Positions 9,305 through 30,900 of a stretch of DNA of 64,000 bases are shown in pieces. The notes below the pieces were generated by a model. The model was not told where the DNA came from. It did not search any database and saw only the letters and a program-made list of their open reading frames with translations. The stretch is from an uncultured Anaerolineales bacterium (GTDB lineage: Bacteria; Planctomycetota; Phycisphaerae; FEN-1346): assembly GCA_964539385.1 (NCBI GenBank), contig CAZIJC010000002.1:16001-80000 (forward strand), written 5' to 3'. The translations under genes and the position numbers were made by a program. How positions within the stretch are numbered: position 1 is the stretch's first letter; the number at the start of each line of letters is the position of its first letter.

Positions 9305-9328
9305 GCCGCAACGAGGGAGACGGACGGC

Positions 9329-11615: not shown

Positions 11616-11894
11616 CACGCTCTCCTTTCCAAACGGGAGTTGAGGATAGGGAACCTGTCGTCCACCCTCTTGGGTGGCCACCGGCGACGACTCAGCATAA
11701 GGGAAAGAAAGGCACAGTCAAGACTCATGCTTTCCCCTCAGCCTCGCCGGTGTCCACTCGGTAGGTGACGCTCTTGCCTTTTCCCGGGTCCAATGCCACA
11801 ATCTTCATGCCGGGACCCTTTTGATTCGCGCCGGTGGGCGATGCCCCGTGGATCAGCCCGATTCCTCGCCCGGCCGCAGACAGGGGGCAAGATC

Positions 11895-13286: not shown

Positions 13287-13349
13287 GCGATTGTCCCGCA
13301 ACATGCGCGGCGGGTCTCCCGACCCGCCGCGACGGAGGGAGGTGCCGCC

Positions 13350-14693
13350 GTGACGATCCGTACCTTCGCCGCCGTTCTGCTCGTGTTCGCGCTGCCCGCG
13401 TGGGCGGCGCCGCCGGTGGTGGTTGAGGAGGGGGACCGCCCGATACTGGCGGCGTTCCTCGGCCACGCCGAGCGGTCGGCCGCCTACTGCACGGCGGAGC
13501 GGATGGCGAAGTTCGCGGCCCAGCCGGAGGACATCGTGTGGCAGGGGTCGCGGTACATCCGTCTGCCGCTCCTGGCGTACCGCCTGACGGGCGACGCCAG
13601 GTACCTCGACGAATTCGTGAAACGGTGCGACGCTCTGTACGGCTGCCAGACGAAGGGCGGCGACGGGTTCCTCGGCTGGTACGGTCTGCCGCTGCCGCTC
13701 TTCCGCCATCCGGACCACCCTGAGGAGAAGGTCGATTGTCTCCTCACAAGTTTCGAGGTAGCGCGGATGGCCGCCGATTTTGCGCGCGTAGTCCGGGCCG
13801 ACGATGCGCTCGTCCGCCGCCACGGACGCGCGGCCGAGCGCTATCTGAAGGTGGCCGAGGAGCACCTGGTCAGAAAATGGGACGCCCGCAAGTGTTACCG
13901 CGACCTCGGCAGATTGGGGGCCGTCTACAGCACGCACCCGGGCCTGAAGTCCGTCAAGGCGGGCCTCACCCAGCCGCACAACAAGCACGCCAAGATCGTC
14001 CGGGCGCTCGTCTCGCTCTACGCCGCCACCGGCAGGGATGAGCACCTCGTGAAGGCCGTCAAACTCGCCGCGCGGTTCAAGCGATGCCTCGCGCTTGCCG
14101 AGGGTCATTACACGTGGAACTACTGGGACCCGGCCGGGCCGTGGGACGTCCATCCCGAGGACCCGGCCAAGTGGAAGCACTGGATCGGGGCCGAGCATCG
14201 CGGCGGGTACTACGCCCTGTCGCTCTCGCAGGCGGTGCTGCTGTACGAGCACGGCCTGGTGTTCGACCGCTCCGACATCGACCGGTTCGTGCAGACGCAG
14301 ACGACGGTCTGCTGGAACGGCGACACCGAGCATCCCAAGTGGGCCCGCGTGGACGGCCGCGCTATGGATCAAGTCTACCTGTGCGCGTACCTGGCGCCGT
14401 TCGACAATGCGATTCGCGAGATGGCCCTGGGTGCGCCCGCGCGCCGCGAACGTCTCAAGCACAAGGACCATTCGTGGCAGGGCTCGGTCGTGGCGGCCGA
14501 GTACCTGGAGATGAAGTACCTGACGTACCCGCGTTGGCGCGACGGTTCGCCGGCCGAGAAGGCGACCGCGGCGCCGTTCCTCGCCAAACCGGCAAACCAG
14601 GCGCTGCTGAAGGAACTGGCGCTGGAGGTCAAAGCGCCCGGTTACCGCGCCCCGCAGACGCCGGCGCAGATGAATCCTGGAGGTGTGCGATGA
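13350..14693 (+). CDS. secreted hypothetical protein, possibly an alpha/alpha-toroid polysaccharide lyase/hydrolase accessory
   Basis: It has a signal peptide (MTIRTFAAVLLVFALPAWAAP), is Trp/Tyr-rich, and carries no recognisable catalytic motif. It is embedded between glycan-active genes. Confidence 0.4.
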   Translation: MTIRTFAAVLLVFALPAWAAPPVVVEEGDRPILAAFLGHAERSAAYCTAERMAKFAAQPEDIVWQGSRYIRLPLLAYRLTGDARYLDEFVKRCDALYGCQTKGGDGFLGWYGLPLPLFRHPDHPEEKVDCLLTSFEVARMAADFARVVRADDALVRRHGRAAERYLKVAEEHLVRKWDARKCYRDLGRLGAVYSTHPGLKSVKAGLTQPHNKHAKIVRALVSLYAATGRDEHLVKAVKLAARFKRCLALAEGHYTWNYWDPAGPWDVHPEDPAKWKHWIGAEHRGGYYALSLSQAVLLYEHGLVFDRSDIDRFVQTQTTVCWNGDTEHPKWARVDGRAMDQVYLCAYLAPFDNAIREMALGAPARRERLKHKDHSWQGSVVAAEYLEMKYLTYPRWRDGSPAEKATAAPFLAKPANQALLKELALEVKAPGYRAPQTPAQMNPGGVR

Positions 14694-16144
14694 ACCGACG
14701 CGAAACGCTGCGGCGGTGGATTGGATGGATTCTCCTTGCGGTGGTGATCGCCGTGGCGGTCACGTCGGCCAGGAGCCGCGCGGGGCAGCCGCCCGCCGCC
14801 GGGCCGCTCCGGGTCCATCCCGACAACCCGCGGTACTTCACCGACGGAAGCGGCAGGGCGATCCTCCTGGCCGGCTCGCACACGTGGCCGAGCCTGGTGG
14901 ACATGGGGCCGAGCGATCCGCCGCCGCGGTTCGACTTCGACGGCTATCTCGATTTCCTCCAGAAGCACGGCCACAACTTCGTCCGCCTCTGGACGTGGGA
15001 GCACACGACGTGGGATACGCGCGGCAACCGCGAGAAGAAACGCCATCATTGCGGGCCCATGCCGTACGCCCGAACCGGACCGGGCAAGGCGCTCGACGGC
15101 AAGCCGAGGTTCGATCTCAGCAAGTTCGACGCCGAGTACTTCAACCGCCTCCGCCGGCGTGTCGAGGCCGCGGGCAAGCGCGGCATCTACATCTCGGTCA
15201 TGCTCTTCGAGGGCTGGGCCATGCAGCACTCACCGGGCGCCTGGGAGTCACACCCCTTCCACCCGAATAACAACATCAGCGGCATCAATGGTGACACGGA
15301 CGGCGACGGCAAGGGCCTGGAGGTCCACGAACTGGCCGACCCCAAGGTCACGGCCATCCAGGAGGCCTACGTCCGCAAGGTCATCGACACGGTCGGCGAC
15401 CTCGACAACGTCCTCTACGAGATCTCCAACGAGAACCATCCGCCGTCAACCAAGTGGCAGTATCACATAATCGAGTTTATCCACAAGCATGAGAAGACCC
15501 GGCCAAAACAGCATCCGGTGGGCATGACGTTCCAGTACAAGGGCGGTAGCAACAAGGCGCTCTTCGACAGCCCGGCCGAGTGGATCTCACCGAACCCGAG
15601 CACCGACGTGCCCAAGGGGCACAACTACCGCGACAATCCGCCGCCCGCCGATGGCCGCAAGGTCATCCTCACCGACACCGATCACCTCTGGGGCATCGGC
15701 GGCGACTACCGGTGGGTGTGGAAGTCGTTCCTGCGCGGCCTCAACCCCATCTTCATGGACCCGTACGACGGCGAGGTCCTGGGCCTTCGCCAGCCCCAGA
15801 ACTGGCCGGCGCTGCGGCGGGCCATGGGCGACGTCCTTCGCTTCAGCCGCCGGAGGGCCTTGGCCGCCATGACGCCGCAGGGCAAACTCGCCTCCACCGG
15901 CTACTGCCTCGCGAATCCCTCCAAGAAGAACCCGGAGTACCTCGTCTACCTGCCCGACGGTGGGAAGGCGACCGTGGACCTCTCGACCACGCCCGGTCCG
16001 CTCGTGGCCGAGTGGTTTGATCCGAAGACGGGCAAAACCGTGAAGGACGACTCGGCTGTCGGCGGCGCCCGCCGCGAGTTCAAAGCCCCCTTCGCCGGCG
16101 ACGCCGTGCTGTACCTCGCCCTATCGTACAGGGCGAACCCCTGA
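14689..16144 (+). CDS. secreted putative glycoside hydrolase (TIM-barrel, cellulase-like/DUF4038-like), paralogue of the 11895-13286 gene
   Basis: The start ATG at 14689 overlaps the upstream stop (ATGA). A signal/TM segment follows (WILLAVVIAVAVTSA). Motifs HNFVRLWTW, YFNRLRRRVEAAGKRGIYISVMLFEGW and YEISNENHP (a NEN-type acid/base motif) suggest a GH5-like fold. Confidence 0.5.
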
Positions 16145-16156
16145 GGGGAAGCCGCC

Positions 16157-18628
16157 ATGGTCCGCTTCGTCGCATGGATTGTCACCGTCATCGGGGTGAC
16201 GGTCTCGGCCGTCGCCGCCACGGAGACCCCCGTCGTCTGGGACTTTGAGGCCGACGCGGCCGGATGGCGGCCGCGGGCCGAGACGGTTGCCGTCACCCGC
16301 GCCGCCGCCGGCGCCACCCCTGCCAGCCGTGGATCGCTCCACGTGCGGGGCCCGATCCGAGTGGGGTGGAACTACGTCACCTCGCCGCACCGGCCCATGA
16401 CGCCGGGCGGCCTGTACCGCCTGTCGGCGCATCTGCGCGTCGATGCGTTGGGCCCGGCCACGCCGGCCCCGTACCTGAAGTGTGAGTTCGTGGGCGCCGA
16501 CCGCCGCAAGGCCCTCGGACGGGCCTCGACCGAACCCTACGACCCGGCGCGGATGGGCACGTGGCAGCGGCTGGCCGGCGAGTTTCGCGCGCCCAAGGGT
16601 GTCGTCTCCAGCTGGCTGGCCCTCGAGAAGGGCACCGCCGGGCCTTGCGAGATCGACGCACGACTCGATGACGTGCGGCTCGAGCCCATCGAGCGGCTCA
16701 CGGTCTTCGACAAGTACCTTCTGGACCCGCTTCCCGAAGGGCTGGCAAAGGTCCGCGGCGTCCACCCGCGGCTGTACCTGACGGCCGATGGCTTCGACGC
16801 GCTCCGCCGCGCCATCCGCTCGACGCACAAGCCGATGTGGGACGAACTCAAGGCCCTCGCCGACCGGTATGCCCGCGGCGGCCCGCCGAAATATATCCGG
16901 CACGACCGCTACAGCGGCGACGAGCAACTCTGGCAGCGGGGTGTCGGAAACGTCATGCCGACCATCGCGATGGCCTACCGGTTGACGGGCGAGAAGCGGT
17001 ATCTCGACGCCGCCAGGGCGTGGGCCCTCGCTTCGTGCGGCTACGAGACGTGGGGCCTCGGACGCATCGACGGCATGGACCTGGCGGCGGGGCACCAACT
17101 CTTCGGCCTGGCCATCGTGTACGACTGGTGTTACCAGGACTTGGGGGCGGAGGCGCGGCAGACGATTCGCGCGACGCTCGTGCGGCGGGGCGGGGCGATG
17201 TTCGACGCGGCTGTCACCGGACGCGCCTGGTGGCGACGCGCCTACCTCCAGAACCATCTCTGGGTCAACGTGTGCGGGCTGGCGGCCGCCGGGCTGGCGG
17301 TGTTCGACGAGGTCGAGGGCGCGTCGATGTGGGTCGGCCTGCCGCTCGAGAAGTTCCGCCGCACGATGGAATCGCTCGGCCCCGACGGGGCCAGCCACGA
17401 GGGTGTCGGCTACTGGCAGTACGGCGCCGAGTACCTCCTGAAGTTCATGCACCTGGCGCGCGACCTGCTGGGCGTGGACCTGCACGGCGGCGCCTGGTGG
17501 CGGAATACCGCCGCCTACGCGCAGTACCTGACGTTGCCCCGCCGGGCGTGGACACGCCGTAACTCAATCGTCGACCTTGCCGACTGCCCGCGCTACAACT
17601 GGTACGGGCCGGAGTACCTGCTGCGCCGTCTGGCGGCCTTGTACCGCGACGGGCACGCCCAGTGGCTGGCGCGCGAGGTCGCCGGCGCCAACATCGCCGC
17701 CGCCGGCGCCCCGTGGCTGAATCTCGTCTGGTTCGACCCGACGGTTGAGGCCCGGCCGCCGACCGACCGTCCGACGCTTCGCCACTTCCGCGACATGGGC
17801 ATCGTGAGTGCCCGAAGCACCTGGTCGGGCGACGAGGCCCTCGTGGTCCTGAAGTGCGGGCCGTTCATCGGACACGAGGCCGTCGAGCGGTTCACCTACG
17901 ACCCCGGCGGCGGGCACGTCCACCCCGACGCGAACCACTTCGTCGTGTTCGCGTGCGGAGAATGGCTCGTCCGCGACGACGGCTACCGCGCCAAACGCAC
18001 CGGCCAACACAACACGCTGCTGGTCGGCGGCAAGGGGCAACTCGGCGAGGGACGCATGTGGTTCGACGGCGCGCCCTGCCTTCGACGAAAGGCCCGGCCG
18101 CGCATCCTACGAGCCGAGAGCACGCCGGCGCTCGACCACATCGCCGGCGATGCGACCGCGGCCTATCCGCCCGAGGCGGGGCTCACGCGGTACGTCCGCC
18201 ACCTCCTTTTCCTCAAGCCCGACGTGCTCCTTGTCATCGACGACGTGGACGCCGAGAAGGAAACCGATCTGGAACTTCGGTATCATCCCGAACAGCAGGC
18301 GGCGACTCGCCGGGGCGACGCCTTTGTGACACGGGGCGAGAAGAGCGTCCTCAGAATCGAGATCCTGACGGCCCAGGGCGCCGCCGTCGCCGCTGAACCT
18401 CTGGCCGTTGCGGGCCGACACGGCGAGGACGGCGAGCAGATGCTGACGGTCCGGCTGCGGCGGCGCGGCCGGGCGTGGCGAAGCGCGGTGGCCCTCTCGT
18501 GGGCTCCCAAGGGCGCCGAGCCGGCCCCCGTCTCGCTCCACGCGGACGGCGACGCCTGGACCTTCGCGGTCGGTGGCCGCACGGTGACCTTCGATTGGCG
18601 GACGGGCCAGGTGGAGGGCGTGCGATGA
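16157..18628 (+). CDS. heparinase II/III-like polysaccharide lyase family protein
   Basis: It has a signal peptide. The C-terminal region (GGGHVHPDANHFVVFACGEWLVRDDGY...QHNTLLVGGKGQ) matches the heparinase II/III C-terminal beta-sandwich signature. An alpha/alpha-toroid-like W/Y-rich region lies N-terminal to it. Confidence 0.7.
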   Translation: MVRFVAWIVTVIGVTVSAVAATETPVVWDFEADAAGWRPRAETVAVTRAAAGATPASRGSLHVRGPIRVGWNYVTSPHRPMTPGGLYRLSAHLRVDALGPATPAPYLKCEFVGADRRKALGRASTEPYDPARMGTWQRLAGEFRAPKGVVSSWLALEKGTAGPCEIDARLDDVRLEPIERLTVFDKYLLDPLPEGLAKVRGVHPRLYLTADGFDALRRAIRSTHKPMWDELKALADRYARGGPPKYIRHDRYSGDEQLWQRGVGNVMPTIAMAYRLTGEKRYLDAARAWALASCGYETWGLGRIDGMDLAAGHQLFGLAIVYDWCYQDLGAEARQTIRATLVRRGGAMFDAAVTGRAWWRRAYLQNHLWVNVCGLAAAGLAVFDEVEGASMWVGLPLEKFRRTMESLGPDGASHEGVGYWQYGAEYLLKFMHLARDLLGVDLHGGAWWRNTAAYAQYLTLPRRAWTRRNSIVDLADCPRYNWYGPEYLLRRLAALYRDGHAQWLAREVAGANIAAAGAPWLNLVWFDPTVEARPPTDRPTLRHFRDMGIVSARSTWSGDEALVVLKCGPFIGHEAVERFTYDPGGGHVHPDANHFVVFACGEWLVRDDGYRAKRTGQHNTLLVGGKGQLGEGRMWFDGAPCLRRKARPRILRAESTPALDHIAGDATAAYPPEAGLTRYVRHLLFLKPDVLLVIDDVDAEKETDLELRYHPEQQAATRRGDAFVTRGEKSVLRIEILTAQGAAVAAEPLAVAGRHGEDGEQMLTVRLRRRGRAWRSAVALSWAPKGAEPAPVSLHADGDAWTFAVGGRTVTFDWRTGQVEGVR

Positions 18629-18747
18629 CTTGGTGGGGCGCGGCGATGATCCTCAGGCCGACCGGCTCTTGCGCTTGACAAACCCGACGGTGCGGGCGAC
18701 AGTACCGGCCGCCTGCCCTGCGCATCCGCCCGTGAAGGAGGCGATCT

Positions 18748-19779
18748 GTGCTCGCGGCCGTCCTGAAAGACTACGATAACCTGGTTCTGGAAGACGTTCC
18801 GCAGCCCGAGCCCGGCATCGGCGAGGCCGTGGTCCGCATCCGGTCGTGCGGGTTCTGCGCCACCGATTACAAAGCCATCAAGGGCATCCGACGCAACGTC
18901 GTCTTTCCGCTCGTTCCGGGGCACGAGCCGTCGGGCGTCGTCGCGAAGGTGGGGCCGGGCGTCGAGCATTTCAGGCAAGGCGATGAGGTTATCCTCCAGC
19001 CGTCCGGTTACTGCGGCGTGTGCGCGCATTGCCGCACCGGAAACACGCATTACTGCGAGCACGCCTTCACGACAGGCGGCGACGGACCGCCGGTGACGTG
19101 GCCCGGGTCGTTCGCCGAGTACACGAAGACGCTCTCCCGGTGCCTGTTTCACAAGCCGCCGTCGCTCTCGTTCGATGCGGCGGCGCTCACCGAGCCGCTT
19201 TCCGGCGCGTGGAAAGGCGTCGTCCAGTACAGCCGGATGCAGGTGGGCGACGACGTGGTCGTCATCGGCACGGGGGGCATCGGCCTTCTGTGCCTGATGG
19301 TGGCGAAGGCGGCCGGGGCCGGAAGGCTCGTCGCCATCGACAAGAGCGACTACGCCCTCGCCAGCGCCGCCGCCCTCGGCGCCACGCACACCGTCAACCC
19401 GAACAACAAGGATGCGAAGCAGCGCGTCTACGAGATCATGCCCGACGGGCCGGACCTCGTGGTCGAGGCGGCCGGGCCCATCGAGGCGGTGCGGATGATG
19501 GTCTCGCTGCTTCGGCGCGGCACGCGGTGGAACGTGTTCGGCATAACGACCCATGAGACGTTCGAGATGGACGGCGGCCTCGCACACTTCCTGGAGGCCC
19601 GCATGGACGCCTCGTTCGGCACCACGCCCAGGGCCATGACGGCCGCCATCCGCCTGATGGAGCGCGGCCTGGTGGACACCGACAGAATCATCTCGCACCG
19701 GTTCCCGCTCGCCGACATCCACAAGGCCGTCGAGGTGATGGGCACTCCGGAACGGAACAAAGTCATCGTCAACCCGTGA
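18748..19779 (+). CDS. Zn-dependent alcohol/polyol dehydrogenase (MDR superfamily)
   Basis: It carries the catalytic Zn motif (GHEPSGVV), the structural Zn Cys cluster (CGVCAHCRTGNTHYC), and a Rossmann motif (VVVIGTGGIGLL). Confidence 0.85.
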   Translation: MLAAVLKDYDNLVLEDVPQPEPGIGEAVVRIRSCGFCATDYKAIKGIRRNVVFPLVPGHEPSGVVAKVGPGVEHFRQGDEVILQPSGYCGVCAHCRTGNTHYCEHAFTTGGDGPPVTWPGSFAEYTKTLSRCLFHKPPSLSFDAAALTEPLSGAWKGVVQYSRMQVGDDVVVIGTGGIGLLCLMVAKAAGAGRLVAIDKSDYALASAAALGATHTVNPNNKDAKQRVYEIMPDGPDLVVEAAGPIEAVRMMVSLLRRGTRWNVFGITTHETFEMDGGLAHFLEARMDASFGTTPRAMTAAIRLMERGLVDTDRIISHRFPLADIHKAVEVMGTPERNKVIVNP

Positions 19780-19837
19780 AAGGCATTGTCCGCCGCGACG
19801 ACGTCGTGAAGGTGGTGCTGGAATGGTGAACGGGCAT

Positions 19838-19885
19838 TTTAGCCGCGACCCGAAGGGGAGCGCGCTCTCCCCTGCGGGTCGCGGC
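19838..19885. terminator. near-perfect 23-bp-arm inverted repeat between convergent genes, probably a bidirectional transcription terminator
   Basis: The sequence is TTTTAGCCGCGACCCGAAGGGGAGCGCGCTCTCCCCTGCGGGTCGCGGCTAAAA. The stem is GC-rich, and T-runs (A-runs on the other strand) flank it on both sides. It lies in the 164-bp gap between the + strand ADH gene and the - strand lyase gene. Confidence 0.6.
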
Positions 19886-19943
19886 TAAAAGGGCATCGCT
19901 TCTCGGCGACGAGTCAAATCAGTTCGGGCCGGGCAGGCGGCTC

Positions 19944-20861
19944 CTATTTCACGCAGTACTCATCGAAGCCAAGGCGCTGGAGTTCGGCCCGCACGTGCTC
20001 GGCCTCCTCCGGCGTCAGGTTTCGCATCGGGGGGCGAGCCGGGCCGCAGTCCAGGCCGACCATCTTCATGACGCTCTTGGCGGCCGGCAGGAACGAACCG
20101 GTCGTCGTGTACAGCAGGTGGATCATCTCGCGGGACCGGCGCTGAAGGTCGCGGGCCGTGTCGAGGTCACCCGCCTCGAACGCCTCCATCATCCGCACGT
20201 ACAGCGGCGCCGAGAAACTGTACGTGCTGCCGACCGCGCCGCGTGCGCCGATCGCCAGGCCGGCGAGCAGCGTCTCGTCGCGGCCGTAGAGGATATCGAA
20301 CCGTCCGTCCGCCACGTCGAGGCACCGTCCATAGTCCATGAGGTCTTCCCAGGTGTACTTAATGCCGGCGAGGGTCGGGATGGCCTCGGTCGCGGCTTCC
20401 AGGAAGTCGGCCATCGGGAACTCGACGCCGGTCATCCCGGGGATGTGGTAATAGTAGAAGGGCAGCGCGGGCGCCGCCTCCGCAACCCGGGCGCAGAACG
20501 CCACCAGGTCCTCGATGGTCTGCGGCTTGAAGAAACACGGCCCCATCGCGCCGATGCCATAGGCGCGGATCTCGGCCGCGTGGGCAGCGAGCGCTTTGGA
20601 CTCGGCCAGACTGTTGTGGCCGACGTGGATGATGACCTTGAACCCGTCGGCCGCCGCGTCCGCCCACCGCCTGGCGACGTCCATCCGCTCGGCGACCGTC
20701 AGCAACAAACTTTCGCCGGTCGTTCCGCACGCGAACACGCCCGCCACGCCGTTTCGCGCCAGCAGGTCGGCGTACGGTTCGACGGCAGCGAGGTTCACGC
20801 CACCGTCTTCAGCCATCGGCGTAAACGGCGCCGCAATCAGCCCTTCGATGCGTTCTGCCAT
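19944..20861 (-). CDS. DapA/NanA-family aldolase (dihydrodipicolinate synthase / N-acetylneuraminate lyase family)
   Basis: The N-terminal region (GLIAAPFTPMAEDGGVNLAAVEPYADLLARNGVAGVFACGTTGESLLLT) is characteristic of the DHDPS/NAL family. A Schiff-base lysine region is present (GIKYTWEDL). Confidence 0.8.
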   Translation of the reverse strand: MAERIEGLIAAPFTPMAEDGGVNLAAVEPYADLLARNGVAGVFACGTTGESLLLTVAERMDVARRWADAAADGFKVIIHVGHNSLAESKALAAHAAEIRAYGIGAMGPCFFKPQTIEDLVAFCARVAEAAPALPFYYYHIPGMTGVEFPMADFLEAATEAIPTLAGIKYTWEDLMDYGRCLDVADGRFDILYGRDETLLAGLAIGARGAVGSTYSFSAPLYVRMMEAFEAGDLDTARDLQRRSREMIHLLYTTTGSFLPAAKSVMKMVGLDCGPARPPMRNLTPEEAEHVRAELQRLGFDEYCVK

Positions 20862-20877
20862 GGCGCGGGTTCCTTCC

Positions 20878-23604
20878 TCATGCGTCTTTCCGCTGGAGCG
20901 TGTAGAGCGTCAGCCCCGCGAGGGCCTTGCGCCGGGCGGGAATGATGAGGCTCGCGACGTATCCGACCACGACGCACGTGACCACGCCGGTGAAACTGTA
21001 CAGCAACAGGTACACGATGCCCGTCCGGCTCACGGTGAACTGGACGGCGGCACTGGCTGCAAGGCCCACGAGCGCGCCGACGCCGTGCGCCCGGCGGCTG
21101 AAGATGCCCAGCAGAAACAGGCCGCCCAGTCCGCCGGCGAACAGGCCGAGAACCTTGCTGAACTCGTCCCACAGACTCTTGACGTCCCATCCCGTCATGA
21201 GCAGCGCGAAGCCCATCCCGGCCAGCCCCACGACGACCGTCACCCATCGGGCCAGGGCGAGGCAGGTGCGGTCCTTCGCGTCCGGCTTGAAGCGGCGGTA
21301 GAAATCCGTGGTGACGGCGGTGGCGACCGAGTTCATGCTGGAATCGAGGCTCGACATCGCCGCCGCGAACAGGGCGGCAATCAGCAGGCCCGCCACGCCC
21401 GTCGGCAACTGCGTCACGATGTACCACGGGAAGACGGCGTCGGCGTTGGCGAGCGTCGGGTTCATCAGGTCCGGCCGCGTCTTGAAGAACGCGTACAGGG
21501 CTGCGCCCATTCCGAAGAAGAGCATCGACCCGGGGATGACCAGGACGGCGTTGGTCCAGATGCCGCGGCCGGCCGCACGCTCGTCCCGGGTCGTCAGGTA
21601 CCGCTGGATGACGGTCTGGTCGCTGCCGTACGAGATGAAGTTGGCGGCCAGTCCGCCCAGCAGGACGACCCAGAAGGTGGGCGTCTGAAGGTCGAACCGG
21701 AAGTCGAAGGTGTGAAACTTGCCGGCCTCGGCGGCGATGTCGATCATGCCGCCCAGGCCGCCCGGAATGTGCGCGAGCATCAGCGCGAGCGACAGCCATG
21801 CGCCGCCCAACAGGACGACCACCTGGAGGACATCGGTCCAGATGACCGCCTCGATACCGCCGAGCACCGTGTAGATGATGCTCAGGACGGCCATCACGAC
21901 GATGCAGACCCGCACGTCGATGCCCGTCACGACGCTCAGGGCGATCGACGGCAGGAACAGGATAATCCCGATCCGCCCCAGGTGCAACAGCATGAACATC
22001 ACGCTGCCGAACAGACGCGCCGCCACGTTGAAACGCTTCTCCAGGTACTCGTACGCCGTGGTCACGTTCAGGCGGCGGAAAAACGGCAGGATCAGGAAGA
22101 TGATCAGCGGCGCGACCATCACGATGGCCACGTTCCCCATGAAGTATCGCCAGTCGGTGGCGAACGTCTTGGCGGGGATGGCCATGAACGTGATGGCACT
22201 CAGTTGCGTGCCATAGATGCTGAGACCCGCCGCCCACCACGGCACGCGGCCGCCCGCCTTGAAGAAGTCGTCGGTCGTCTTTTCGCGCCGCGAGAAGTAC
22301 ACGCCCATCGCCACCAGGGCGGCCAGGTACACGCCCAGCACCGCGTAGTTGATCCATCCGAACGGCCGGGCCGGCGGCGGGTCGGCCTTCCAGACCTTCG
22401 GCGTGCGCACGCCGGGCCGGACCTCGCCGCTGGGGATGAAGATCGAGTCGCCGCGCGCGACCGCCGTCGTCGTCACGGGGCAGGCGCCCGGGAACCGGCC
22501 GACGCGTGTCCACGTGTCGGTGATCGTGTGGTAGGCGAGAAGATCGCGGCTGAAACCGGGATGGTCGTCGAGGATGCGGTTCTTCCCCCTGGTGAGCGCA
22601 TCGGCTTCGGCGCCGTCTCCGCGATCCGTCGCTTCGTCGATCCGGCGTCCGAGGCGCTCGAGTTCGAGGAACCGTTTCCCGTCGCCGCCGCCGAACACCA
22701 GGATGTGACCCGCGCCCGAGGCGACGGCCGACGCCGCCATGATCGAGCGCGGCGGTTCGCCTTGGGGGGCAACGTCGGCCAGGCGCGTCCACGTACCGGT
22801 CTTGGGTTTGTACCGGTAAGCGTCGGTCAGGACCCGTGTCTCGGCGTCGGGGGCGATGTATCGGCCGCTGAAAAGGTAGAAGCAGTCGGTCGCCCCGTCG
22901 CTCTGCGCGGCGGCCACCGGGAGTATGCGCGACGGTCCGGGCCAAGGGGCGAGTTTCTCCCACGCAAAGTCCGGGTTCCGGTCGGTCTCTTTCGGATCGA
23001 ACAGCGACAGGTCCAGCCGCCAGAAATGCTTCGTCGCCCGGGCGCCGGTCATCGTCTCCTGCCCGCCGGCAACGTAGATGGCATCGCCAACCTTGGCGGC
23101 CGCCATGAACGCCAGCGGACGGGGCAGGGACGGAAGCGTGCGATGGATAAGGCCCTGCTCGGCCGCATCGTACGCGACCAGCACCGTCTCGGTGTAGCAG
23201 CGCTGGGCGTCGCATCCCCCGATGCAGAGGATGCCGTGCTTTGTGGTGACCGATGCGCCGTAAGCCAACGGCCGCGGCAGTTTGCACTGCTCGTTGGTTC
23301 GCCATTCGTAGGTGCCGCCGCGAGCGGGTTCGAGGACGAAGGCGTTGTCGTGCCAGACCTTCTTGCCGCCGCCCCACGGCGGCGCGTCGGGGAAGTTCGC
23401 ACCGCCCGCAACGATGAGCCTGCCGCAGTCCACGCCGACGAACGGGCCGGCCACGCCGGGTTGGGTCTGCTGCCCCGGCGCGGGCGGCAGCGGCGGCAGG
23501 TCGGTCCAGGTCAGGGCGTCTCGTGCCGGCGGCTGCGCCTCGGCGCCCAGCGCCGACGACGAGGCAACCATCAGGCAGACGGCCATCGCCAAGAGGCGCC
23601 ACAT
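20878..23604 (-). CDS. fusion protein: N-terminal NanM/YjhT-like Kelch-repeat mutarotase domain plus C-terminal sodium:solute symporter (SSS family)
   Basis: A signal peptide (MWRLLAMAVCLMVASSSALG) leads into Kelch-propeller motifs (GRLIVAGGANFP, HGILCIGGC, AIYVAGGQE, HILVFGGGDG), then 13 predicted TM helices with SSS-like sequence (GRVPWWAAGLSIYGTQLSAITFMAIPA). Start position 23604 was chosen at the signal peptide. Confidence 0.7.
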   Translation of the reverse strand: MWRLLAMAVCLMVASSSALGAEAQPPARDALTWTDLPPLPPAPGQQTQPGVAGPFVGVDCGRLIVAGGANFPDAPPWGGGKKVWHDNAFVLEPARGGTYEWRTNEQCKLPRPLAYGASVTTKHGILCIGGCDAQRCYTETVLVAYDAAEQGLIHRTLPSLPRPLAFMAAAKVGDAIYVAGGQETMTGARATKHFWRLDLSLFDPKETDRNPDFAWEKLAPWPGPSRILPVAAAQSDGATDCFYLFSGRYIAPDAETRVLTDAYRYKPKTGTWTRLADVAPQGEPPRSIMAASAVASGAGHILVFGGGDGKRFLELERLGRRIDEATDRGDGAEADALTRGKNRILDDHPGFSRDLLAYHTITDTWTRVGRFPGACPVTTTAVARGDSIFIPSGEVRPGVRTPKVWKADPPPARPFGWINYAVLGVYLAALVAMGVYFSRREKTTDDFFKAGGRVPWWAAGLSIYGTQLSAITFMAIPAKTFATDWRYFMGNVAIVMVAPLIIFLILPFFRRLNVTTAYEYLEKRFNVAARLFGSVMFMLLHLGRIGIILFLPSIALSVVTGIDVRVCIVVMAVLSIIYTVLGGIEAVIWTDVLQVVVLLGGAWLSLALMLAHIPGGLGGMIDIAAEAGKFHTFDFRFDLQTPTFWVVLLGGLAANFISYGSDQTVIQRYLTTRDERAAGRGIWTNAVLVIPGSMLFFGMGAALYAFFKTRPDLMNPTLANADAVFPWYIVTQLPTGVAGLLIAALFAAAMSSLDSSMNSVATAVTTDFYRRFKPDAKDRTCLALARWVTVVVGLAGMGFALLMTGWDVKSLWDEFSKVLGLFAGGLGGLFLLGIFSRRAHGVGALVGLAASAAVQFTVSRTGIVYLLLYSFTGVVTCVVVGYVASLIIPARRKALAGLTLYTLQRKDA

Positions 23605-23851
23605 GCGTCTCGTTTCCGGGTGTCGTCGCCGGTGTGCCATACGCCGCAGGCTACCGCACCATCCCGCTCGACGCAAGGAAACCGCGCCGGCGGAGCGGCA
23701 AGGTGGCGGGGCGCCGTGCGGCCCCATATTGCGTTGGCGTTGGCGTCGCCGCCGCCCTATCATCCGTTCAAGTTCCTGTCACCGGGGCGGAGGCCGATGC
23801 GCTGAGCGCCATCGAGCCCGCCGCGGGAGCGGCGGGGCACGTACCTGTACG

Positions 23852-25066
23852 ATGAACGCTAATACAAGGAGCTCGCTCTTGATCCGACCACGCACGCTTC
23901 GTCTTTGCCTTGTCGCGACACTGCTCCTGGCTTCGCCGGGGCCTTCGCCCGCTGCGACGAAGCATTCGCTCCCCGCCTTCGACTTCACTCGTCCGGCCGG
24001 GGCGGCGGCCGGGGAAGCCTACAAGACAGGACCCGGCCCGCAGGAGGTCGAGACGATCACCTACGACTGGCTCGACGCGAAACGCGAGCGGCCGGTGCCC
24101 GTCAGGGTGTACTACCCGAAGACCGGCGAGGGAAGCGTGCCGGTCATCGTCTTTTCGCACGGCCTCGGCGGGTCGCGCGACGGATACGCCTACCTCGGCC
24201 GCCACTGGGCGAGTCACGGCTACGTCTCGGTCCACCTCCAGCACAAGGGGAGCGACACCGACGTGTGGCGCGGCAAGGCGAACCCGATGAAAGCGATGCG
24301 CGAGACGGCGGTCGATCCGCGCAACGCCATTGCCCGCACCCGCGACGTCCGCTTCGCCATCGACCGGCTCGAACAGATGAACCGCGAGACGCCGCCGCTC
24401 CGGGGCAGGCTCGACCTGGCGCGCGTCGGCATGGCGGGCCACTCCTTCGGCGCCCACACCACGCTCGCCGTCGCCGGACAGACGTACACCCCGCTGCTTG
24501 GGAAGCCGAAGACGGCCGACCCGCGCGTCAAGGCCGCCATCCCGATGAGTTCACCCGTGCCGGCCCGCACGATCGGCCTCGACGCCGTGTACCAGCACAT
24601 CCGCATCCCGTGCTTCCACATGACCGGCACGCTCGACTCGAGCGTCATCCGCGAGACGGACCCCAAGCAGCGCCGCATCCCGTTCGACCACACCCGCGGC
24701 GCCGACCAGTACCTCGTGACGTTCGAGGGCGGCGACCACATGGTTTTCTCCGGGCACAGGCGCCGCTTCGGCGACGGCGTGAAGGACCCGCTCTTTCACA
24801 ACCTTATCCGCCGGAGCACGACGGCGTTCTGGGACGCGTACCTCAAGGGCGACGCCAAGGCAATGGCGTGGCTGGCCGACGGCGGCTTCGAGACGCTGCT
24901 CGGGGCAAACGGCGTGTTCGAGAAGAAGATCAAACGGCGCGCGAAGCGCGCCCAGCCGGTCGTCGAGCCCGCTGCCGTCGAGCCCGCTGCCATCGAGCCC
25001 GCCGCCGTCGAGCCCGCCGCCGTCGAGCCCGCCGCGGGAGCGGCGGGGCACGTACCAGGCCCATGA
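23852..25066 (+). CDS. secreted alpha/beta-hydrolase (PAF-acetylhydrolase/dienelactone hydrolase-like esterase) with a C-terminal (VEPAA)x5 repeat tail
   Basis: It has a signal peptide (LCLVATLLLASPGPSPAA), a nucleophile elbow GHSFGAH, an HGLGGSRDGY oxyanion region, and a catalytic His (GGDHMVF). The C-terminus reads VEPAAVEPAAIEPAAVEPAAVEPAA. Confidence 0.65.
   Translation: MNANTRSSLLIRPRTLRLCLVATLLLASPGPSPAATKHSLPAFDFTRPAGAAAGEAYKTGPGPQEVETITYDWLDAKRERPVPVRVYYPKTGEGSVPVIVFSHGLGGSRDGYAYLGRHWASHGYVSVHLQHKGSDTDVWRGKANPMKAMRETAVDPRNAIARTRDVRFAIDRLEQMNRETPPLRGRLDLARVGMAGHSFGAHTTLAVAGQTYTPLLGKPKTADPRVKAAIPMSSPVPARTIGLDAVYQHIRIPCFHMTGTLDSSVIRETDPKQRRIPFDHTRGADQYLVTFEGGDHMVFSGHRRRFGDGVKDPLFHNLIRRSTTAFWDAYLKGDAKAMAWLADGGFETLLGANGVFEKKIKRRAKRAQPVVEPAAVEPAAIEPAAVEPAAVEPAAGAAGHVPGP
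24962..25036 (+). repeat. five tandem 15-bp repeats (GTCGAGCCCGCYGCS) encoding (V/I)EPAA x5 at the 3' end of the esterase gene
   Basis: The repeat is directly visible: gtcgagcccgctgcc gtcgagcccgctgcc atcgagcccgccgcc gtcgagcccgccgcc gtcgagcccgccgcg. Confidence 0.9.
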
Positions 25067-27741
25067 TCATCAACCAGAGGAGATCGACTTTGCCGCGACC
25101 GCTCGCCCTCTCTCTTTGCTTTGTCGCGATACTGCTCCTGGCTTCGACCGCGCCTTCGCCCGCCGCGACGAAGCCTTCGCTCCTCGGCTTCGACTTCACC
25201 CGGCCGGGCGGGGCGAGCGGGTGGCGGCCGACGCACGACATCTCGCGCCTGGAAGGCACGCGCGAGGGCTTGGTCATCGAGATCAGCGGCGGCGACCCGT
25301 ACACGATGGGCCCGGCGCTCGACCTGCCTGCCGGTGCGAAACTCTGGCTGCGGATGCGTCTGAAGGCATCGCAGCCCGGCACGTGCCAGGTCTTCTACTG
25401 GAAGCACGGTTCGGGCGCCTCGGAGGCAAAGAGCGTCCGTTTCGCCGTCCCGACGACCCACTGGGTCGAGAAGCGCGTGCCGCTGCCGGCGCTGGGCCCC
25501 AAGACGCACTTCCGCATCGACCCGCCGGGCGCTAAGGGCCGGGCCGTCATCGCCGCCATGACGTTCGAGCCGCGCGTCCTCCATCCCGAACCGAGGTGGC
25601 CGAAGCCGGTGCCGCCGGACTTGGCAGGCGAGACGGTCACCGTACGCTCGGGCGACCTCGTGCTGCGCCACGGCAAGGCGTCGCCGGGCGATTTCGTCGT
25701 CGAGGTCGCGGGCCGGAAGATGGCGACAAGCCTGACGCCATCGCTCATCGGGTACGTCCAGGACAGCGAGGTGCGGTGGATGCCCACCGGCCCGCATCTC
25801 CGCGACGCCGACGGCGCGACGTGGCGCATCGACTGGACGTTTGCGTCAGGCCGGCAGTCCGGGACCGTAGACGTCGCCGTACGGGTCACGGTGGACCGGC
25901 TGCGCGACGTCGTCTTTATGCCGATGTTCTTCCTGGCGCCGGGCGCGGGGTCGTTCGGCAACCAGAAGAATCAGGGCCTCTTTGCGGGCCTGGAGTACCT
26001 GGCGAACGAGCCGTCGAGCAGCGAGGCCGACATCAAGGGGCCTGCCTCGAAGCGGCAGGTGCCCCACAGCCTGAAGATCACCATGCCCCTGATGGCTATC
26101 CAGGCGAACGACCGGTACGTGGGCCTCGCCTGGGAGCGCGACCCGCAGTTTGCTGCCGTCTTCGATTCGCCCGACCGCCTGTTCGGCACGGGCGGCCACG
26201 TCATGGGCCTCATCTTCCCCGGCTCCGACGGCGAGAACCGGCCCGAAGCAAGCCTGATGCCGTACGGCAGCGCGCGGCTGGAGGCAAACAAGCCGCTCGT
26301 CCTGAAGGCCACCATCATCGGCGGCAAGGGCAAGAGCGTGATTCCCGCCGTGCGGCAGTACGTCGCATTGCGCGGCCTGCCGACGGCGCCCGACACGGGT
26401 CTCGATACAGACGGCTACGCGCGATTGGCCGCCGCCGGATGGCTCGACTCGAAGATCCGCGAGGGCGACCTGTATCGCCACGCCTTCTGGCCGAAGTTTG
26501 GACCCCACCCGGCGGCCGACGCGGCCCTCTGGATGGATTACCTCGCCCGGCACACCGGCGACGCGGCGTTGGGGGCGAGGCTCCGGAAGGCGGCGGACGG
26601 CGCGCTGGCGCGAGTCAACCCGCGCGATTACTACCACTCCGGCGTCTCGCACGTCCGCTACCCCGCCGCGCCGCTCACCTACGGCCACGTGGCGGAGGCA
26701 GTGGAGCGAGCGCGGCAGTCGGGGCGCAACGCGCTCAAGCGTTTCGAGCCCGATGGCAGAGTCCTGTATCGGCGGGCGAAGAATAAGCCCGACTTCGGCA
26801 GCACCCATTTCACGCCCGACGCCAACGGCCTGACGGGCCGCGTCGTGAAGGACGTCCTGGAGGCGGCCGCCTTCTGCGGCGACGCGGAACTCATCAAGGA
26901 GGGCCTGCGCGTCCTGCGGGCGCTCGAGGAGTTCGCGAACACCGTCCCGCGCGGAGCGCAAACGTGGGAGATTCCCCTCCACACGCCCGACATCCTCGCC
27001 TCGGCCCATCTCGTCCGCGCCTACACGCTCGGCTACGAACTGACCGGCGAGAAGCACTTTCTCGACCAGGCCCGGTACTGGGCGTGGACGGGCGTGCCGT
27101 TCGTGTACCTCGTCAACCCGACGGGCGGCAAGGTCGGGCCGTACAGCACCATCGCCGTCTACGGCGCGACGAACTGGCGGGCGCCCGTCTGGCTCGGCCG
27201 CCCCGTCCAGTGGTGCGGCTTGGTGTATGCCGATGCGCTGTGGCAGTTTCTGGACGCCGGCCCCGAGGCTTGGGTCGGTCCGTGGTGCGACATCGCGTCG
27301 GGCATCACGGCCGCCGGCATCCAGCACTCCTGGAAGCAGAACGACAAGGATCGCCAGGGCCTGCTGCCCGACTTCTTCCACCTGCGCGACCAGCGACGCG
27401 ACGGCCCCGCCATCAACCCCGGCACGGTTCAGGCCAGCGCCCCGTGGCTGTACGATGGGATGCTCGTCGTGTACGACTTCCATGTGTTCCGCCGCCATGG
27501 GCTCTACGTTCATGCGCCGGGTCCGGTCGCGAAGGACCTGGTGCCGGACGATCGCGTGGTGTTCGTTGTGGAAGGCCCGTCCAGCGGGCCCTACTACGTG
27601 CTCGTCAGCGGCCTGAAGGCCGAGCCGTCCATCCGCCTGGGCGGCAAGGACGTGCCGGTGTCCGACCCCCACCAGTACCTGCCGACCGGCAATCTGATCC
27701 TGAAGGTCGAAGGCTTAGCGCACATCACCATCGTCCCGTAA
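25063..27741 (+). CDS. large secreted hypothetical protein (about 890 aa), possibly a glycan-active enzyme with an N-terminal beta-sandwich domain
   Basis: Its ATG overlaps the esterase stop (ATGA). Its signal peptide and first 50 aa are nearly identical in pattern to those of the esterase. The remainder is W/Y/G-rich, and I recognised no motif. Confidence 0.5.
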   Translation: MIINQRRSTLPRPLALSLCFVAILLLASTAPSPAATKPSLLGFDFTRPGGASGWRPTHDISRLEGTREGLVIEISGGDPYTMGPALDLPAGAKLWLRMRLKASQPGTCQVFYWKHGSGASEAKSVRFAVPTTHWVEKRVPLPALGPKTHFRIDPPGAKGRAVIAAMTFEPRVLHPEPRWPKPVPPDLAGETVTVRSGDLVLRHGKASPGDFVVEVAGRKMATSLTPSLIGYVQDSEVRWMPTGPHLRDADGATWRIDWTFASGRQSGTVDVAVRVTVDRLRDVVFMPMFFLAPGAGSFGNQKNQGLFAGLEYLANEPSSSEADIKGPASKRQVPHSLKITMPLMAIQANDRYVGLAWERDPQFAAVFDSPDRLFGTGGHVMGLIFPGSDGENRPEASLMPYGSARLEANKPLVLKATIIGGKGKSVIPAVRQYVALRGLPTAPDTGLDTDGYARLAAAGWLDSKIREGDLYRHAFWPKFGPHPAADAALWMDYLARHTGDAALGARLRKAADGALARVNPRDYYHSGVSHVRYPAAPLTYGHVAEAVERARQSGRNALKRFEPDGRVLYRRAKNKPDFGSTHFTPDANGLTGRVVKDVLEAAAFCGDAELIKEGLRVLRALEEFANTVPRGAQTWEIPLHTPDILASAHLVRAYTLGYELTGEKHFLDQARYWAWTGVPFVYLVNPTGGKVGPYSTIAVYGATNWRAPVWLGRPVQWCGLVYADALWQFLDAGPEAWVGPWCDIASGITAAGIQHSWKQNDKDRQGLLPDFFHLRDQRRDGPAINPGTVQASAPWLYDGMLVVYDFHVFRRHGLYVHAPGPVAKDLVPDDRVVFVVEGPSSGPYYVLVSGLKAEPSIRLGGKDVPVSDPHQYLPTGNLILKVEGLAHITIVP

Positions 27742-27990: not shown

Positions 27991-30900
27991 ATGACCATGC
28001 GAACGTCTCGAATCTGGCCGATGGTTGTGGTTTTGACGATGGCCGTCTTCCTGCCGATGGTGGAGGCGGTGCACGCGGCGGCGGCGGAACCGGCCGCCAA
28101 GCCTCTCTCGGCGGAGGAGGCGAAGGCCGTCCGCGAACAGAGCATCTACATCCCTTATGAGAAACTCCGCGAGGTCTTCGAGAAACAGGGCCGCGGGGTG
28201 TTCCTGCCCTACGAAAAGTTCCAGGAACTCTGGAAGGCCGCACGCGACAAGACCGCACCGCCCCCCGAGACCAAGCCACCCATCGACGCCCTCATCACCG
28301 AGGTCTCCGGCGTGGCCACCGTCTCGAAAGACGTCGTCACGGTCGAGGCCACACTGAAGTTCGAGGTCCTCAAGGAGGGCTGGAACGAGGTTCTGCTCCG
28401 CCTGCGCGACGTCGCCCTGACGAAGGCGACGCTCGGCGCCGAGCCCGCGCGCATCATCTCCGACGCCAAGGCAGGCTACAAACTCCTGGTCGAGAAGAAG
28501 GGCAAAGACCCGCAGCAGTTCACCCTGACCCTCGGCTTCGCCAAGGCCTACTCGAAGGCGCCGGGCCAGAACAGCGTCTCGTTCGAGAGTCCGCAGGCCC
28601 CGGTGAGCAAGTGGGAGGTCCGCATCCCCGAGTCGGGCGTCAAGGTGAACATCCATCCGCTCCTGGCAGCCACCGAGGTCCCGCCCGCCGCCGGCGCCGA
28701 CGCCAAGCAGACCGTTGTCCTGGCGTTCGTCGGCGCTGCGCCCACCGTCCGGATCGACTGGACGCCCAAGGCCGAGGGCGCCAAGGGCCTCGCGGCGCTG
28801 GCGAGCGTCCAGATCGAACAGCAGACGGCCATCGAAGAAGGCGTCACGCGGACCCGTGCGACGCTGGCCTACGAGATCAGCCGGGCGGAACTGGCGAGCC
28901 TCCAGGTCGAGGTCCCCGCCAACCAGAAGGTGGCCGGCGTCTTCGATCCGAACGTCCGCGAGTGGTCGGTGGAGGCCGCCGGAGGCGTCCAGAAGATCAC
29001 CGTCCAACTGTTCGAGCCCGCCAAGAAGACGCAGAACCTGACGCTCGAACTCGAAAAGTTCAGCGCCGAGCAGCCCCCCCAGGTCAAAGTGCCCGTCATC
29101 AAGGCCCTCGGCGTGGGACGCCAGCAGGGCGTGGTCGTCGTGCAGGTGGCCTCCGGCCTGCGGGCCGAGGCCGTCGCCCACGCCGGCCTCCTGCAACTCG
29201 ATGCGGCCGAACTGCCCAAGACGCTCGCCAAGGGCAAGTGGGATTTCTCCTACCGTTACGCCGCCCTGCCGTTCGACCTGACCCTCGGCGTCGAGAAGGT
29301 CCAGCCGCGCATCCTCGCCGACTCGCTCGTCGAGGCCCACCTCGGCACCGAGGCGCTGACGGTGGATTTGCTGACCGTCTATACGGTTGAGCGGGCCGGC
29401 GTGTTCCGTTTCGAGATCGACGTGCCTGAAGGCTACGACGTCCGCAGCGTGCGCGGCGCGGCCGTGGGCAAGGCCGTTCGCCCCGCCCAGGTCGAGGCCC
29501 ATCACCTGGAGGGCCCGAACAAGACGCGCCTCGTGGTGAACCTGTCGCGCAAGGCCATGGGCAAGGTGGCCCTGGCCGTCGGGCTCCACAAGACGCTGCA
29601 CGAGCCGGACCTCCTGGCCCCCACCGGCAAGGCGGCCAACATCCCGCTGGCCATCCCGCGCGTGGCGCCCGACAGCGTCCAGCGCGAGACGGGGCGCCTG
29701 GTCGTCTATGCCCCGGAGAGCCTTCGCGTCAACCCTGATAAACCGACCGGCCTGCGGACCGTTACGTTCCAGGAAGCGACCAAAGACATGCGGCGGACGC
29801 AGCGCGGCGGCGAGCGGCCCGTCCTGGCGTTCGCCTACACCGAGGAGCCGGCGTCGTTGGCCCTGGCCGCCGAACGCCGCAAGCCTCACGTCACCGTGCG
29901 GCAACTGCTGGTGGCGCGGATCGATTCGGGGGTCGTCAAGTACTCGGCCACGTTCTTCTACGACGTGCTCTACAGCGGCGTGAAGAACCTGCGGCTGGAC
30001 GTGCCGCAGGACCTCGCCGCCGACATCCGCGTCACGCCCCTGACCATTCGACATGAAACCATTGCCGAGAAGCCCGACGATCTCGCCGACGGATACGTCG
30101 CCTGGCAGTTGACCGGCGATGCGGAGTTCATGGACTCGGTCGGGGTGACACTGACGTGGGAGAAGAAGATCGAGAAACTCGACGTCGGCAAGAGCGTGAA
30201 CCTCGATATTCCGCGGCTCATCCCGCGCGACATCGACCGGGCATGGGGACAGATCGTCCTGGCCAAGGCAGAGACCATCGACGTGCAACGGGCAGAGGGC
30301 GAGGAGAAGGTCAAGGGCCTCAGGCCCATTGACCCCCAGCACGACCTGATGCCCGGCGCGGCCGTCAAGGCCGCGGCCCGGGCCTTCGAGTTCCACGAGG
30401 ACTGGGCCCTTACGGTCGTCGCCACGATGTACAAACTCGAGGACATCAAGCACACCGCCATCGAACGGGCCTTCGTCCGGATGGTCGTGACGCGAAGCGA
30501 CCTCATCAGCGTCCAGGCCCTCTACCGCGCCCGAAGCGCCCGGCAGCGGCTTCGGGTGAGGCTGCCGGCCGATTTCCACGAGTTTGACCGTGACCCGCTG
30601 CGAATCAACGGCCGCCCCGTGTCGCTTGAACACAGCGGCGACCGCACCACGTTCTTCGTGCCGCTGATCTCGCTGACACCCGACGAGCCGTTCCTGCTGG
30701 AACTGCGGTACACCGTCAAGGGCGCCGGCATGACGCTCGAGTGCCCCGTCTTTCCGGAAGAGCCCGCCGTCCAGAAAGTGTACCTGTCGGCGTGGCTGCC
30801 TGAGGAATGGGACTTCCTCGGCTCGGTCGGCCCCTGGACCGACGAGTTGTACTGGCACGTGCGTTTGGGCGACCTCGTCTGGTATCCGGCGCCTTATCGC

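Follow-up and report, generated by a model that had tools for sequence, protein, structure and literature searches.

A siaF-type mutarotase–symporter fusion gene paired with a nanA-type lyase gene: a probable minimal sialic acid scavenging operon in an uncultured member of the Planctomycetota

In a 64-kb stretch of contig CAZIJC010000002.1 from an uncultured, Phycisphaerae-like member of the Planctomycetota (the window, meaning the whole stretch that was analysed), we identified a minus-strand gene that encodes a Kelch propeller and a sodium:solute symporter (SSS) in one chain. A second gene, which follows on the same strand, encodes a predicted N-acetylneuraminate lyase (NAL) of the NanA type. 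The features of the pair, with the evidence on which each was assigned, are given below; AF2 denotes the AlphaFold2 model of the fusion protein, and pLDDT its predicted local distance difference test score.

20878..23604, minus strand: siaF-type fusion gene, stop codon included (open reading frame (ORF), identical product called by the Joint Genome Institute (JGI), Pfam NANM and SSF, AF2 model)
23536..23604, minus strand: predicted signal peptide, residues 1–23, MWRLLAMAVCLMVASSSALGAEA (hydrophobic N-terminal stretch; helix 2–20, with lower pLDDT)
22381..23517, minus strand: six-bladed Kelch propeller, residues ~30–408, cyclically permuted relative to E. coli NanM/YjhT (TIGR03548, 2UVK, Foldseek)
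22402..22428, minus strand: equivalent of the catalytic motif, GEVRPGVRT, residues 393–401, in the last blade (2UVK alignment, translation, conservation)
22357..22380, minus strand: proline-rich linker DPPPARPF, residues 409–416, 8 residues (sequence; AF2 strand 404–408 and helix 417–438)
20881..22356, minus strand: SSS (SLC5-type) Na+ symporter domain, SiaT-like, residues 417–908 (5NV9 match, Foldseek, residue table)
20862..20877, minus strand: spacer between siaF and the lyase gene, 16 nt, containing the purine-rich GGAAGGAA (sequence)
19944..20861, minus strand: nanA-type N-acetylneuraminate lyase gene, 305 residues (Pfam DHDPS, PDB matches, NanA/DapA alignment, adjacency in 43/80 loci)

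The fusion gene lies within a minus-strand ORF spanning 20878..23763, in which position 23604 corresponds to Met54. We accepted 23604 as the right start because its 908-residue product is exactly that of a gene predicted on the 84-kb JGI metagenome contig Ga0111034_1003027, the 961-residue version starting at 23763 has no database record, and homologues begin aligning at residue 1 of the shorter form. The identical 908-residue protein is present on 2 contigs. This single chain consists of a predicted signal peptide, a Kelch propeller, a proline-rich linker and an SSS permease of 13 transmembrane (TM) helices. Pfam placed NANM (PF24996; 136 bits, cut-off 45) at residues 158–407 and in one further stretch, with SSF (PF00474; 162 bits) at residues 447–848 of the same chain. 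The predicted leader, MWRLLAMAVCLMVASSSALG/AEA, comprises the hydrophobic residues 1–23 and ends in ALG-AEA; it was assigned from hydrophobicity and the model helix at 2–20.

An AF2 model of the full-length protein, built on 96 homologues, had a mean pLDDT of 89.7 and a predicted template modelling score (pTM) of 0.89. Its secondary structure follows the domain order, with a helix at residues 2–20, an all-beta region at 32–408 broken by an insertion at 310–346, and helices from 417 onward. For a protein with two domains this is a high pTM, which implies that the propeller and the permease, as modelled, pack against each other in a defined manner. Both domains were carried by all 120 homologues among the matches listed, from a set of at least 120 proteins, and residue counts given below out of 121 refer to the query plus these 120. 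Neighbour and locus counts refer to 80 loci retained from species-representative genomes, at which the match to the query was nearly full-length, with a few interrupted by contig ends. The initial annotation, made from the window's letters and ORFs, had proposed a signal-peptide-led Kelch mutarotase fused to an SSS symporter, and these data bear out the fusion and agree with the predicted leader. Its figure of about 450 residues for the propeller was too large: the propeller itself is ~380 residues, within an extracytoplasmic part of ~410.

The best NCBIfam model for the propeller was TIGR03548, 'cyclically-permuted mutarotase', which aligned from end to end (residues 49–404 to model positions 2–322 of 323) with a score of 180 bits, under its cut-off of 243. 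Neither TIGR03547 (YjhT; 130 versus a cut-off of 256) nor PRK14131 (148 versus 416) was reached. Alignment to the E. coli NanM/YjhT structure 2UVK broke into two swapped stretches, residues 211–408 to YjhT 41–223 and residues 47–144 to YjhT 239–339, and the propeller is therefore circularly permuted relative to E. coli NanM. Its blade order differs from that of YjhT, and it belongs with the permuted relatives described by TIGR03548 although it falls below that cut-off. In Foldseek searches the N-terminal half of the model superposed on six-bladed Kelch propellers with target TM-scores (TMt) of 0.75–0.80, in agreement with the AF2 strand pattern. The structure 2UVK was not among the top 50 Foldseek PDB matches of the model, probably because the permutation defeats sequential alignment.

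The residues expected of a NanM-type enzyme are present in this domain. E394 and R400 of the motif GEVRPGVRT align to E209 and R215 of GEAKPGLRT, with exact indices in chain 2UVK_A. Severi and colleagues reportedly found in 2008 that Glu209 and Arg215 of YjhT are important for mutarotase activity, and from this role and the exact index match we take the two residues to be catalytic in NanM. The shared pattern, GE-x2-PG-x-RT, occurs in 76 of the 81 fused proteins from genomes; among 20 aligned sequences spanning 52–84% identity, G393, E394, P397, G398 and R400 never vary, and among 96 aligned sequences the conservation of E394 and R400 is at least 90%. A check for the NanM catalytic Glu and Arg had been proposed together with the initial description of the propeller as NanM-like, and its outcome sustains that description. 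The domain resembles E. coli NanM/YjhT (2UVK) as a six-bladed Kelch propeller of predicted periplasmic location with this motif. E. coli NanM differs in being a soluble, unpermuted homodimer, whereas the window domain is fused to a membrane protein and matches it at E ~1e-17. As a result of the circular permutation the catalytic blade is the last in the chain, and 8 residues (DPPPARPF) lie between the final propeller strand and the first membrane helix.

The closest solved relative of the permease was Proteus mirabilis SiaT (5NV9; E 3.9e-115, 389 bits), aligned at query residues 414–895 to residues 5–488 of 496; the next-best solved match scored 185 bits. The permease is 42% identical to SiaT across 13 helices, and the model superposed on 5NV9/5NVA with TMt 0.92–0.94. 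These results uphold its earlier description as a 13-TM, SSS-type permease and place it close to SiaT. The roles of SiaT residues are taken from Wahlgren et al. 2018 (PMC5931594), in which Ser60, Thr63 and Arg135 are the carboxylate ligands and their mutation abolishes transport of N-acetylneuraminic acid (Neu5Ac). The equivalent triad in the query, S469/T472/R544, is kept in 121/121 sequences. At the Na2 site, SiaT Leu59, Ala339 and Ser342 are likewise kept in 121/121; Ser342/Ser343 correspond to S751/S752 of the query, and position 343 is Ser in 111/121 and Thr in 10/121. SiaT Ala56 is replaced by Gly in 113/121 sequences, including the query (G465), at a position that presumably binds Na+ through its backbone carbonyl. 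SiaT Asp182 (query D591) and Arg260 are conserved in 121/121. At the Na3 site, D591 and S755 (SiaT Asp182 and Ser346) are kept and Ser345 is replaced by D754.

In addition to the N-terminal enzyme domain, the window protein differs from SiaT at five sugar contacts and at this Na3 ligand, as listed below with the SiaT role, the query residue and the count among the 121 sequences.

SiaT Thr58, anomeric hydroxyl and glycerol tail: Gln in the query (Q467), 106/121
SiaT Gln82, glycerol tail: Asn in the query (N491), 119/121
SiaT Phe78, N-acetyl pocket: Tyr in the query (Y487), 78/121
SiaT Phe243, N-acetyl pocket: Gly in the query (G651), 113/121
SiaT Gln250, water-mediated contact: Ser in the query (S658), 105/121
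SiaT Ser345, Na3 ligand: Asp in the query (D754), 114/121

These substitutions extend across the fused family, in roughly 65–98% of the 121 sequences depending on position, and are not peculiar to the window protein. The window's 11-position pocket signature, QSTYGNRGNSD, was also found in relatives encoded beside sialidases of glycoside hydrolase family 33 (GH33). Mutation of Gln82 to Asp abolishes transport in SiaT (Wahlgren et al. 2018, PMC5931594); the substitution here is to Asn.

The lyase gene begins 16 nt downstream of siaF on the same strand, behind the GGAAGGAA stretch, and the spacer contains no terminator-like site; the promoter and terminator scan was otherwise uninformative. This spacing implies co-transcription of the two genes as an operon-like pair, as judged from the DNA sequence. 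The best PDB matches of the lyase were 6H4E, 6ARH and 5AFD (E ~1e-68, 42–43% identity), each bearing the name N-acetylneuraminate lyase, in one case with the qualifier 'putative'; 5AFD is the biochemically characterised enzyme of Aliivibrio salmonicida. E. coli NanA, to which the lyase is 28% identical, and the best DapA structures matched at only ~1e-29 to 1e-30. With the vertebrate NPL/Aliivibrio/6H4E group of NALs (6ARH, 5AFD, 6H4E) the window lyase shares 42–43% identity over its full length, the Schiff-base Lys, the catalytic Tyr, the GTTGE motif, the DE pair and GSTY.

The Pfam family DHDPS spans both NanA and DapA. We compared the residues that separate the two enzymes; those that define NanA are established for the family. 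The lyase has the Schiff-base K168, the catalytic tyrosine Y138 and T47/T48 (E. coli Lys165, Tyr137 and Ser47/Thr48). In DapA, Arg138 is essential and binds aspartate semialdehyde, and the lyase has Met143 at this position (NanA, Leu142). Its D195-E196 pair corresponds to D191-E192 of NanA (D-A in DapA), and S212 in GSTY to S208 of NanA (SVTA in DapA). The match to solved NALs, Met143 in place of Arg138, and the NanA-type D-E and Ser residues together rule out DapA. The proposal that a NanA/DapA-family lyase adjoins the fusion gene was therefore correct, and the comparison with NanA and dihydrodipicolinate synthase suggested with it groups the enzyme with the solved NALs (~1e-68 versus ~1e-30 for DapA).

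Fusions of this kind are already known. In Severi et al. 2021 (Microb Genom 7:000614; PMC8461474), SiaF is the name given to a clade of ST5 transporters in which NanM is fused to an SSS protein; the chain starts with a leader, continues with a NanM ('cyclically permutated mutarotase') domain and ends in an SSS domain of 13 TM helices. The same paper reports SiaF in Planctomycetes, Verrucomicrobia and Bacteroidetes, with its gene frequently lying in a nan cluster, and gives as its rationale that beta-Neu5Ac would be handed directly to the transporter. The novelty of the fusion implied by the initial annotation, which offered the same channelling argument, is thus not sustained: the window protein adds an ordinary member to a known family, and its architecture is not novel. 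It has the leader (as predicted), the permuted NanM domain N-terminal to the transporter, the 13-helix SSS domain of the sialic acid group and the nan linkage described for SiaF, as well as the fused-family residues N491, D754 and G651, and it is 44–61% identical to fused proteins from genomes of Bacteroidota, Verrucomicrobiota and Planctomycetota. We found no architectural difference from SiaF; the sole linked nan gene in the window is the downstream nanA, with no larger nan or sialidase cluster. An independent parallel in the same paper (PMC8461474) is Akkermansia NanM-NanZ (ST4), in which a leader-bearing NanM likewise precedes a sialic acid transporter within one fused chain; that transporter is of the major facilitator superfamily with an added TM helix, whereas the window transporter is of the SSS type. 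The consequence of the permutation described above, a catalytic blade placed last and followed by a short linker, was not seen stated in the portion of Severi et al. 2021 that was available (PMC8461474).

Two further observations concern the propeller. The insertion at residues 310–346 (window 22567–22677, minus strand) is predicted by AF2 as two helices, aligns with YjhT ~133–175 and is retained in the family consensus. Severi et al. 2021 (PMC8461474) describe SiaF propellers as lacking the helical hairpin through which E. coli NanM dimerises; the modelled insertion contrasts with that description, and may or may not be the same element. Separately, some relatives of ~1240–1290 residues carry two tandem permuted mutarotase propellers before the SSS domain. 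We checked this in P0040, P0054 and P0058, where each propeller is 42–50% identical to that of the query; P0044, P0052, P0066 and P0079 are matches of similar length. This double-propeller form was not seen in the SiaF description of the same paper (PMC8461474).

To place the pair in its genomic context, we counted neighbours at the 80 loci by unbiased clustering of flanking ORFs.

Lyase: 43/80 loci
GH33 sialidase: 37/80 loci
SusC/SusD-like pairs (Bacteroidota; named from sequence features only): 20 and 17 of 80 loci
Sulfatase: 17/80 loci
N-acylglucosamine 2-epimerase (AGE): 8/80 loci
Sialate O-acetylesterase: 6/80 loci
The window's Zn-dependent alcohol dehydrogenase (Zn-ADH): 1/80 loci (L010), plus one weak match (L061)
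Heparinase II/III-like (HepIII-like), DUF6298, unk447 and CollB463: 0/80 loci

The last two entries concern genes beside the pair in the window, of which the nearest is the Zn-ADH gene.

18748..19779, plus strand: Zn-dependent alcohol dehydrogenase of the medium-chain dehydrogenase/reductase family, convergent with the lyase gene (Pfam ADH_N and ADH_zinc_N; no NCBIfam equivalog cut-off reached)

The aldolase and the Zn-ADH had both been described as convergent neighbours of the fusion gene; the aldolase gene in fact lies on the siaF strand, and it is the Zn-ADH gene that converges on it. The closest genome, locus L005, is the Planctomycetota metagenome-assembled genome (MAG) CSMAG_1261, at 93–95% nucleotide identity to the window. 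L005 and the window are collinear apart from two blocks present in the window alone, 11729–19889 and 23723–27640, which have clean junctions and flank the conserved siaF-nanA core (19890–23722) exactly. The first block (8.2 kb) holds three glycosidase-like or unknown ORFs, a gene with DUF4962 and heparinase II/III-like domains, and the Zn-ADH gene; the second (3.9 kb) holds a PAF-AH/PETase-like hydrolase gene and an 892-residue ORF without a Pfam match. As the first block is missing from L005, the Zn-ADH and polysaccharide-lyase-like genes are strain-variable neighbours outside the module. We rejected the Zn-ADH and the heparinase-like genes as parts of it on synteny, with the ADH at 1–2/80 loci, the others at 0/80 and the block absent from L005. 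The suggestion of an uptake and catabolism module for nonulosonic or 2-keto-3-deoxy sugar acids is supported for the SiaT-like permease and the NanA-type lyase, and falls for the Zn-ADH.

Taken together, the architecture, the residue conservation, the homology to characterised proteins and the linkage of the two genes support a reading in which siaF and nanA are probably a minimal operon of the SiaF type for scavenging sialic (nonulosonic) acids. The signal peptide would export the N-terminal propeller to the periplasm, where, as a NanM-type mutarotase, it would use E394 and R400 to accelerate the change of alpha- into beta-sialic acid, the alpha form being the anomer that sialidases release. 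With the catalytic blade last and an 8-residue proline-rich linker to the first SSS helix, the product may form near the outer face of the transporter. The SSS domain would bind the sugar carboxylate through S469, T472 and R544 and import the sugar with Na+, its Na2 site being intact and its Na3 site altered. In the cytoplasm, the class I aldolase, acting through a Schiff base at K168, would cleave the sugar to pyruvate and N-acylmannosamine or hexose. The enzymes of later steps, and any sialidase, may be encoded elsewhere or supplied by the community.

Several observations weigh against this assignment. The lyase fell below the NCBIfam equivalog cut-offs for NanA (NF003164, 148 versus 281; TIGR00683, 122 versus 382), and the propeller was short of those for YjhT and for the permuted mutarotase family. 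Five SiaT sugar contacts are replaced (T58Q, Q82N, F78Y, F243G, Q250S), as is the Na3 ligand (S345 to Asp). No sialidase, nanK, nanE, AGE, nagA/B or sialate esterase was detected in the 64-kb window by Pfam on 32 ORFs (selected by GC content at third codon positions (GC3) or called by JGI, and spanning 1–63 kb), by tblastn with sialidase, AGE and sialate-esterase representatives from related loci, or by a scan for Asp-box motifs. Finally, our literature search found no transport, mutarotase or channelling experiment on any SiaF protein, and Severi et al. 2021 (PMC8461474) call experimental evidence very scarce.

Some of these points would suit the same machinery acting on another nonulosonic acid, such as 2-keto-3-deoxynononic acid (KDN), N-glycolylneuraminic acid (Neu5Gc), O-acetylated forms, or legionaminic- or pseudaminic-type acids from environmental polymers, rather than on self-released Neu5Ac. 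The altered N-acetyl and glycerol-tail contacts and the sub-threshold NanA scores are compatible with such a substrate, the host is an environmental Planctomycetota MAG, and no sialidase lies within reach of the locus in the sub-clade formed by the window, L005, L006, L007 and L010. However, relatives whose genes lie next to those for GH33 sialidases and NanA share the window's pocket signature, the closest characterised lyases cleave Neu5Ac, and we found no positive pointer to another sugar. We therefore regard a different substrate as unlikely, though not negligibly so.

A broader possibility, which we hold to be rather improbable, is that the fused SiaF family is more than SiaT with an enzyme attached. 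Its substrate range may differ from that of SiaT, with KDN or further environmental nonulosonic acids as candidates, as may its anomer or Na+ stoichiometry, or it may perform true channelling from enzyme to transporter; in the sialidase-less Phycisphaerae sub-clade it may serve cross-feeding alone, on nonulosonic acids released by the community. We raise this because T58Q, Q82N/F243G/Q250S and S345D are family-wide and because the permutation sets the catalytic blade at the first transporter helix.

We also considered whether the propeller could be a non-catalytic Kelch domain, serving as a lectin-like receptor or scaffold. The imported and cleaved sugar would then be an acid of the 2-keto-3-deoxygluconate (KDG) or 2-keto-3-deoxyoctonate (KDO) type; genes nearby for polysaccharide-lyase-like and glycosidase-like proteins would supply it, and the Zn-ADH would act in its pathway. 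Heparinase II/III-like and DUF6298/apiosidase-like proteins and the Zn-ADH are indeed encoded just past the lyase, and KDG-type aldolases belong to the DHDPS family too, among them YagE, whose match to the lyase has E ~1e-18. Against this, the propeller keeps the NanM catalytic Glu and Arg, and the lyase carries the DE and S residues specific to NanA; its matches to NALs surpass those to YagE or DapA by 40–50 orders of magnitude. The closest relative also lacks the polysaccharide genes and the ADH, as do 78–80 of the 80 related loci, at which the family-wide partners are sialidase and NanA. This scheme is accordingly very unlikely. That the fusion is an assembly, frameshift or gene-calling artefact, or the aldolase a housekeeping DapA of lysine biosynthesis, has nothing in its favour beyond its prior possibility and the breadth of the DHDPS family, and it is effectively refuted by the identical protein on 2 contigs, the architecture common to the 120 listed homologues and 80 species genomes, the confident and continuous AF2 model, the replacement of Arg138 by Met143 and a DapA model score (TIGR00674) of 122 against a cut-off of 206.

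Some features of the genes around the siaF-nanA core were recorded in their own right. The Zn-ADH gene is 81.5% nucleotide-identical to the lyase-adjoining ADH gene of L010, a Phycisphaerae MAG whose siaF and lyase genes are only 70–74% identical to those of the window; the Zn-ADH is either under more constraint or was exchanged more recently. Threonine dehydrogenase and scyllo-inosose dehydrogenase models scored ~180 bits on its product, far under their cut-offs. On the other side of the core, a 229-nt direct repeat (23776–24004 and 24987–25215; 77% identity) spans the 5' leader and signal-peptide coding region of both the alpha/beta-hydrolase gene (23879–25066) and the 892-residue ORF that follows it. 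A 15-nt tandem repeat at 24961–25035 encodes (VEPAA)n at the C-terminus of the hydrolase. L006 has the hydrolase and 892-residue ORF genes as well, with the repeat region in a different arrangement.

Further from the core, two plus-strand ORFs of 1161 and 2614 residues (28021–31506 and 31499–39343) have strong coding GC3 and no Pfam match, and are conserved in L005. A Tad/type II–IV secretion-like set at 2126–10237 (plus strand) comprises a TadE/G-like protein, an FHA-domain T2SSE ATPase and two T2SSF platform proteins, and is preceded by a Ser/Thr kinase-TPR protein that is cut at the window edge. At 57186–62908 (minus strand) lie genes for two Gfo/Idh/MocA oxidoreductases, one with a twin-arginine (TAT) signal, a xylose-isomerase-like TIM barrel and a phosphoenolpyruvate (PEP)-utilising enzyme I-like protein; this cluster is sugar-related and unconnected to the siaF-nanA finding.

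With the fusion already published, the locus adds little to the SiaF family beyond one more environmental example. Its value is rather as a test case: a compact pair of genes, its fusion protein confidently modelled at full length, would be convenient for finding out whether a periplasmic mutarotase covalently joined to a symporter makes uptake faster, and could also reveal the role of the altered sugar pocket and Na3 site. For the biology of the host group, the locus suggests that uncultured Phycisphaerae-type Planctomycetota carry genes for sialic acid scavenging without a nearby sialidase, which is consistent with cross-feeding.

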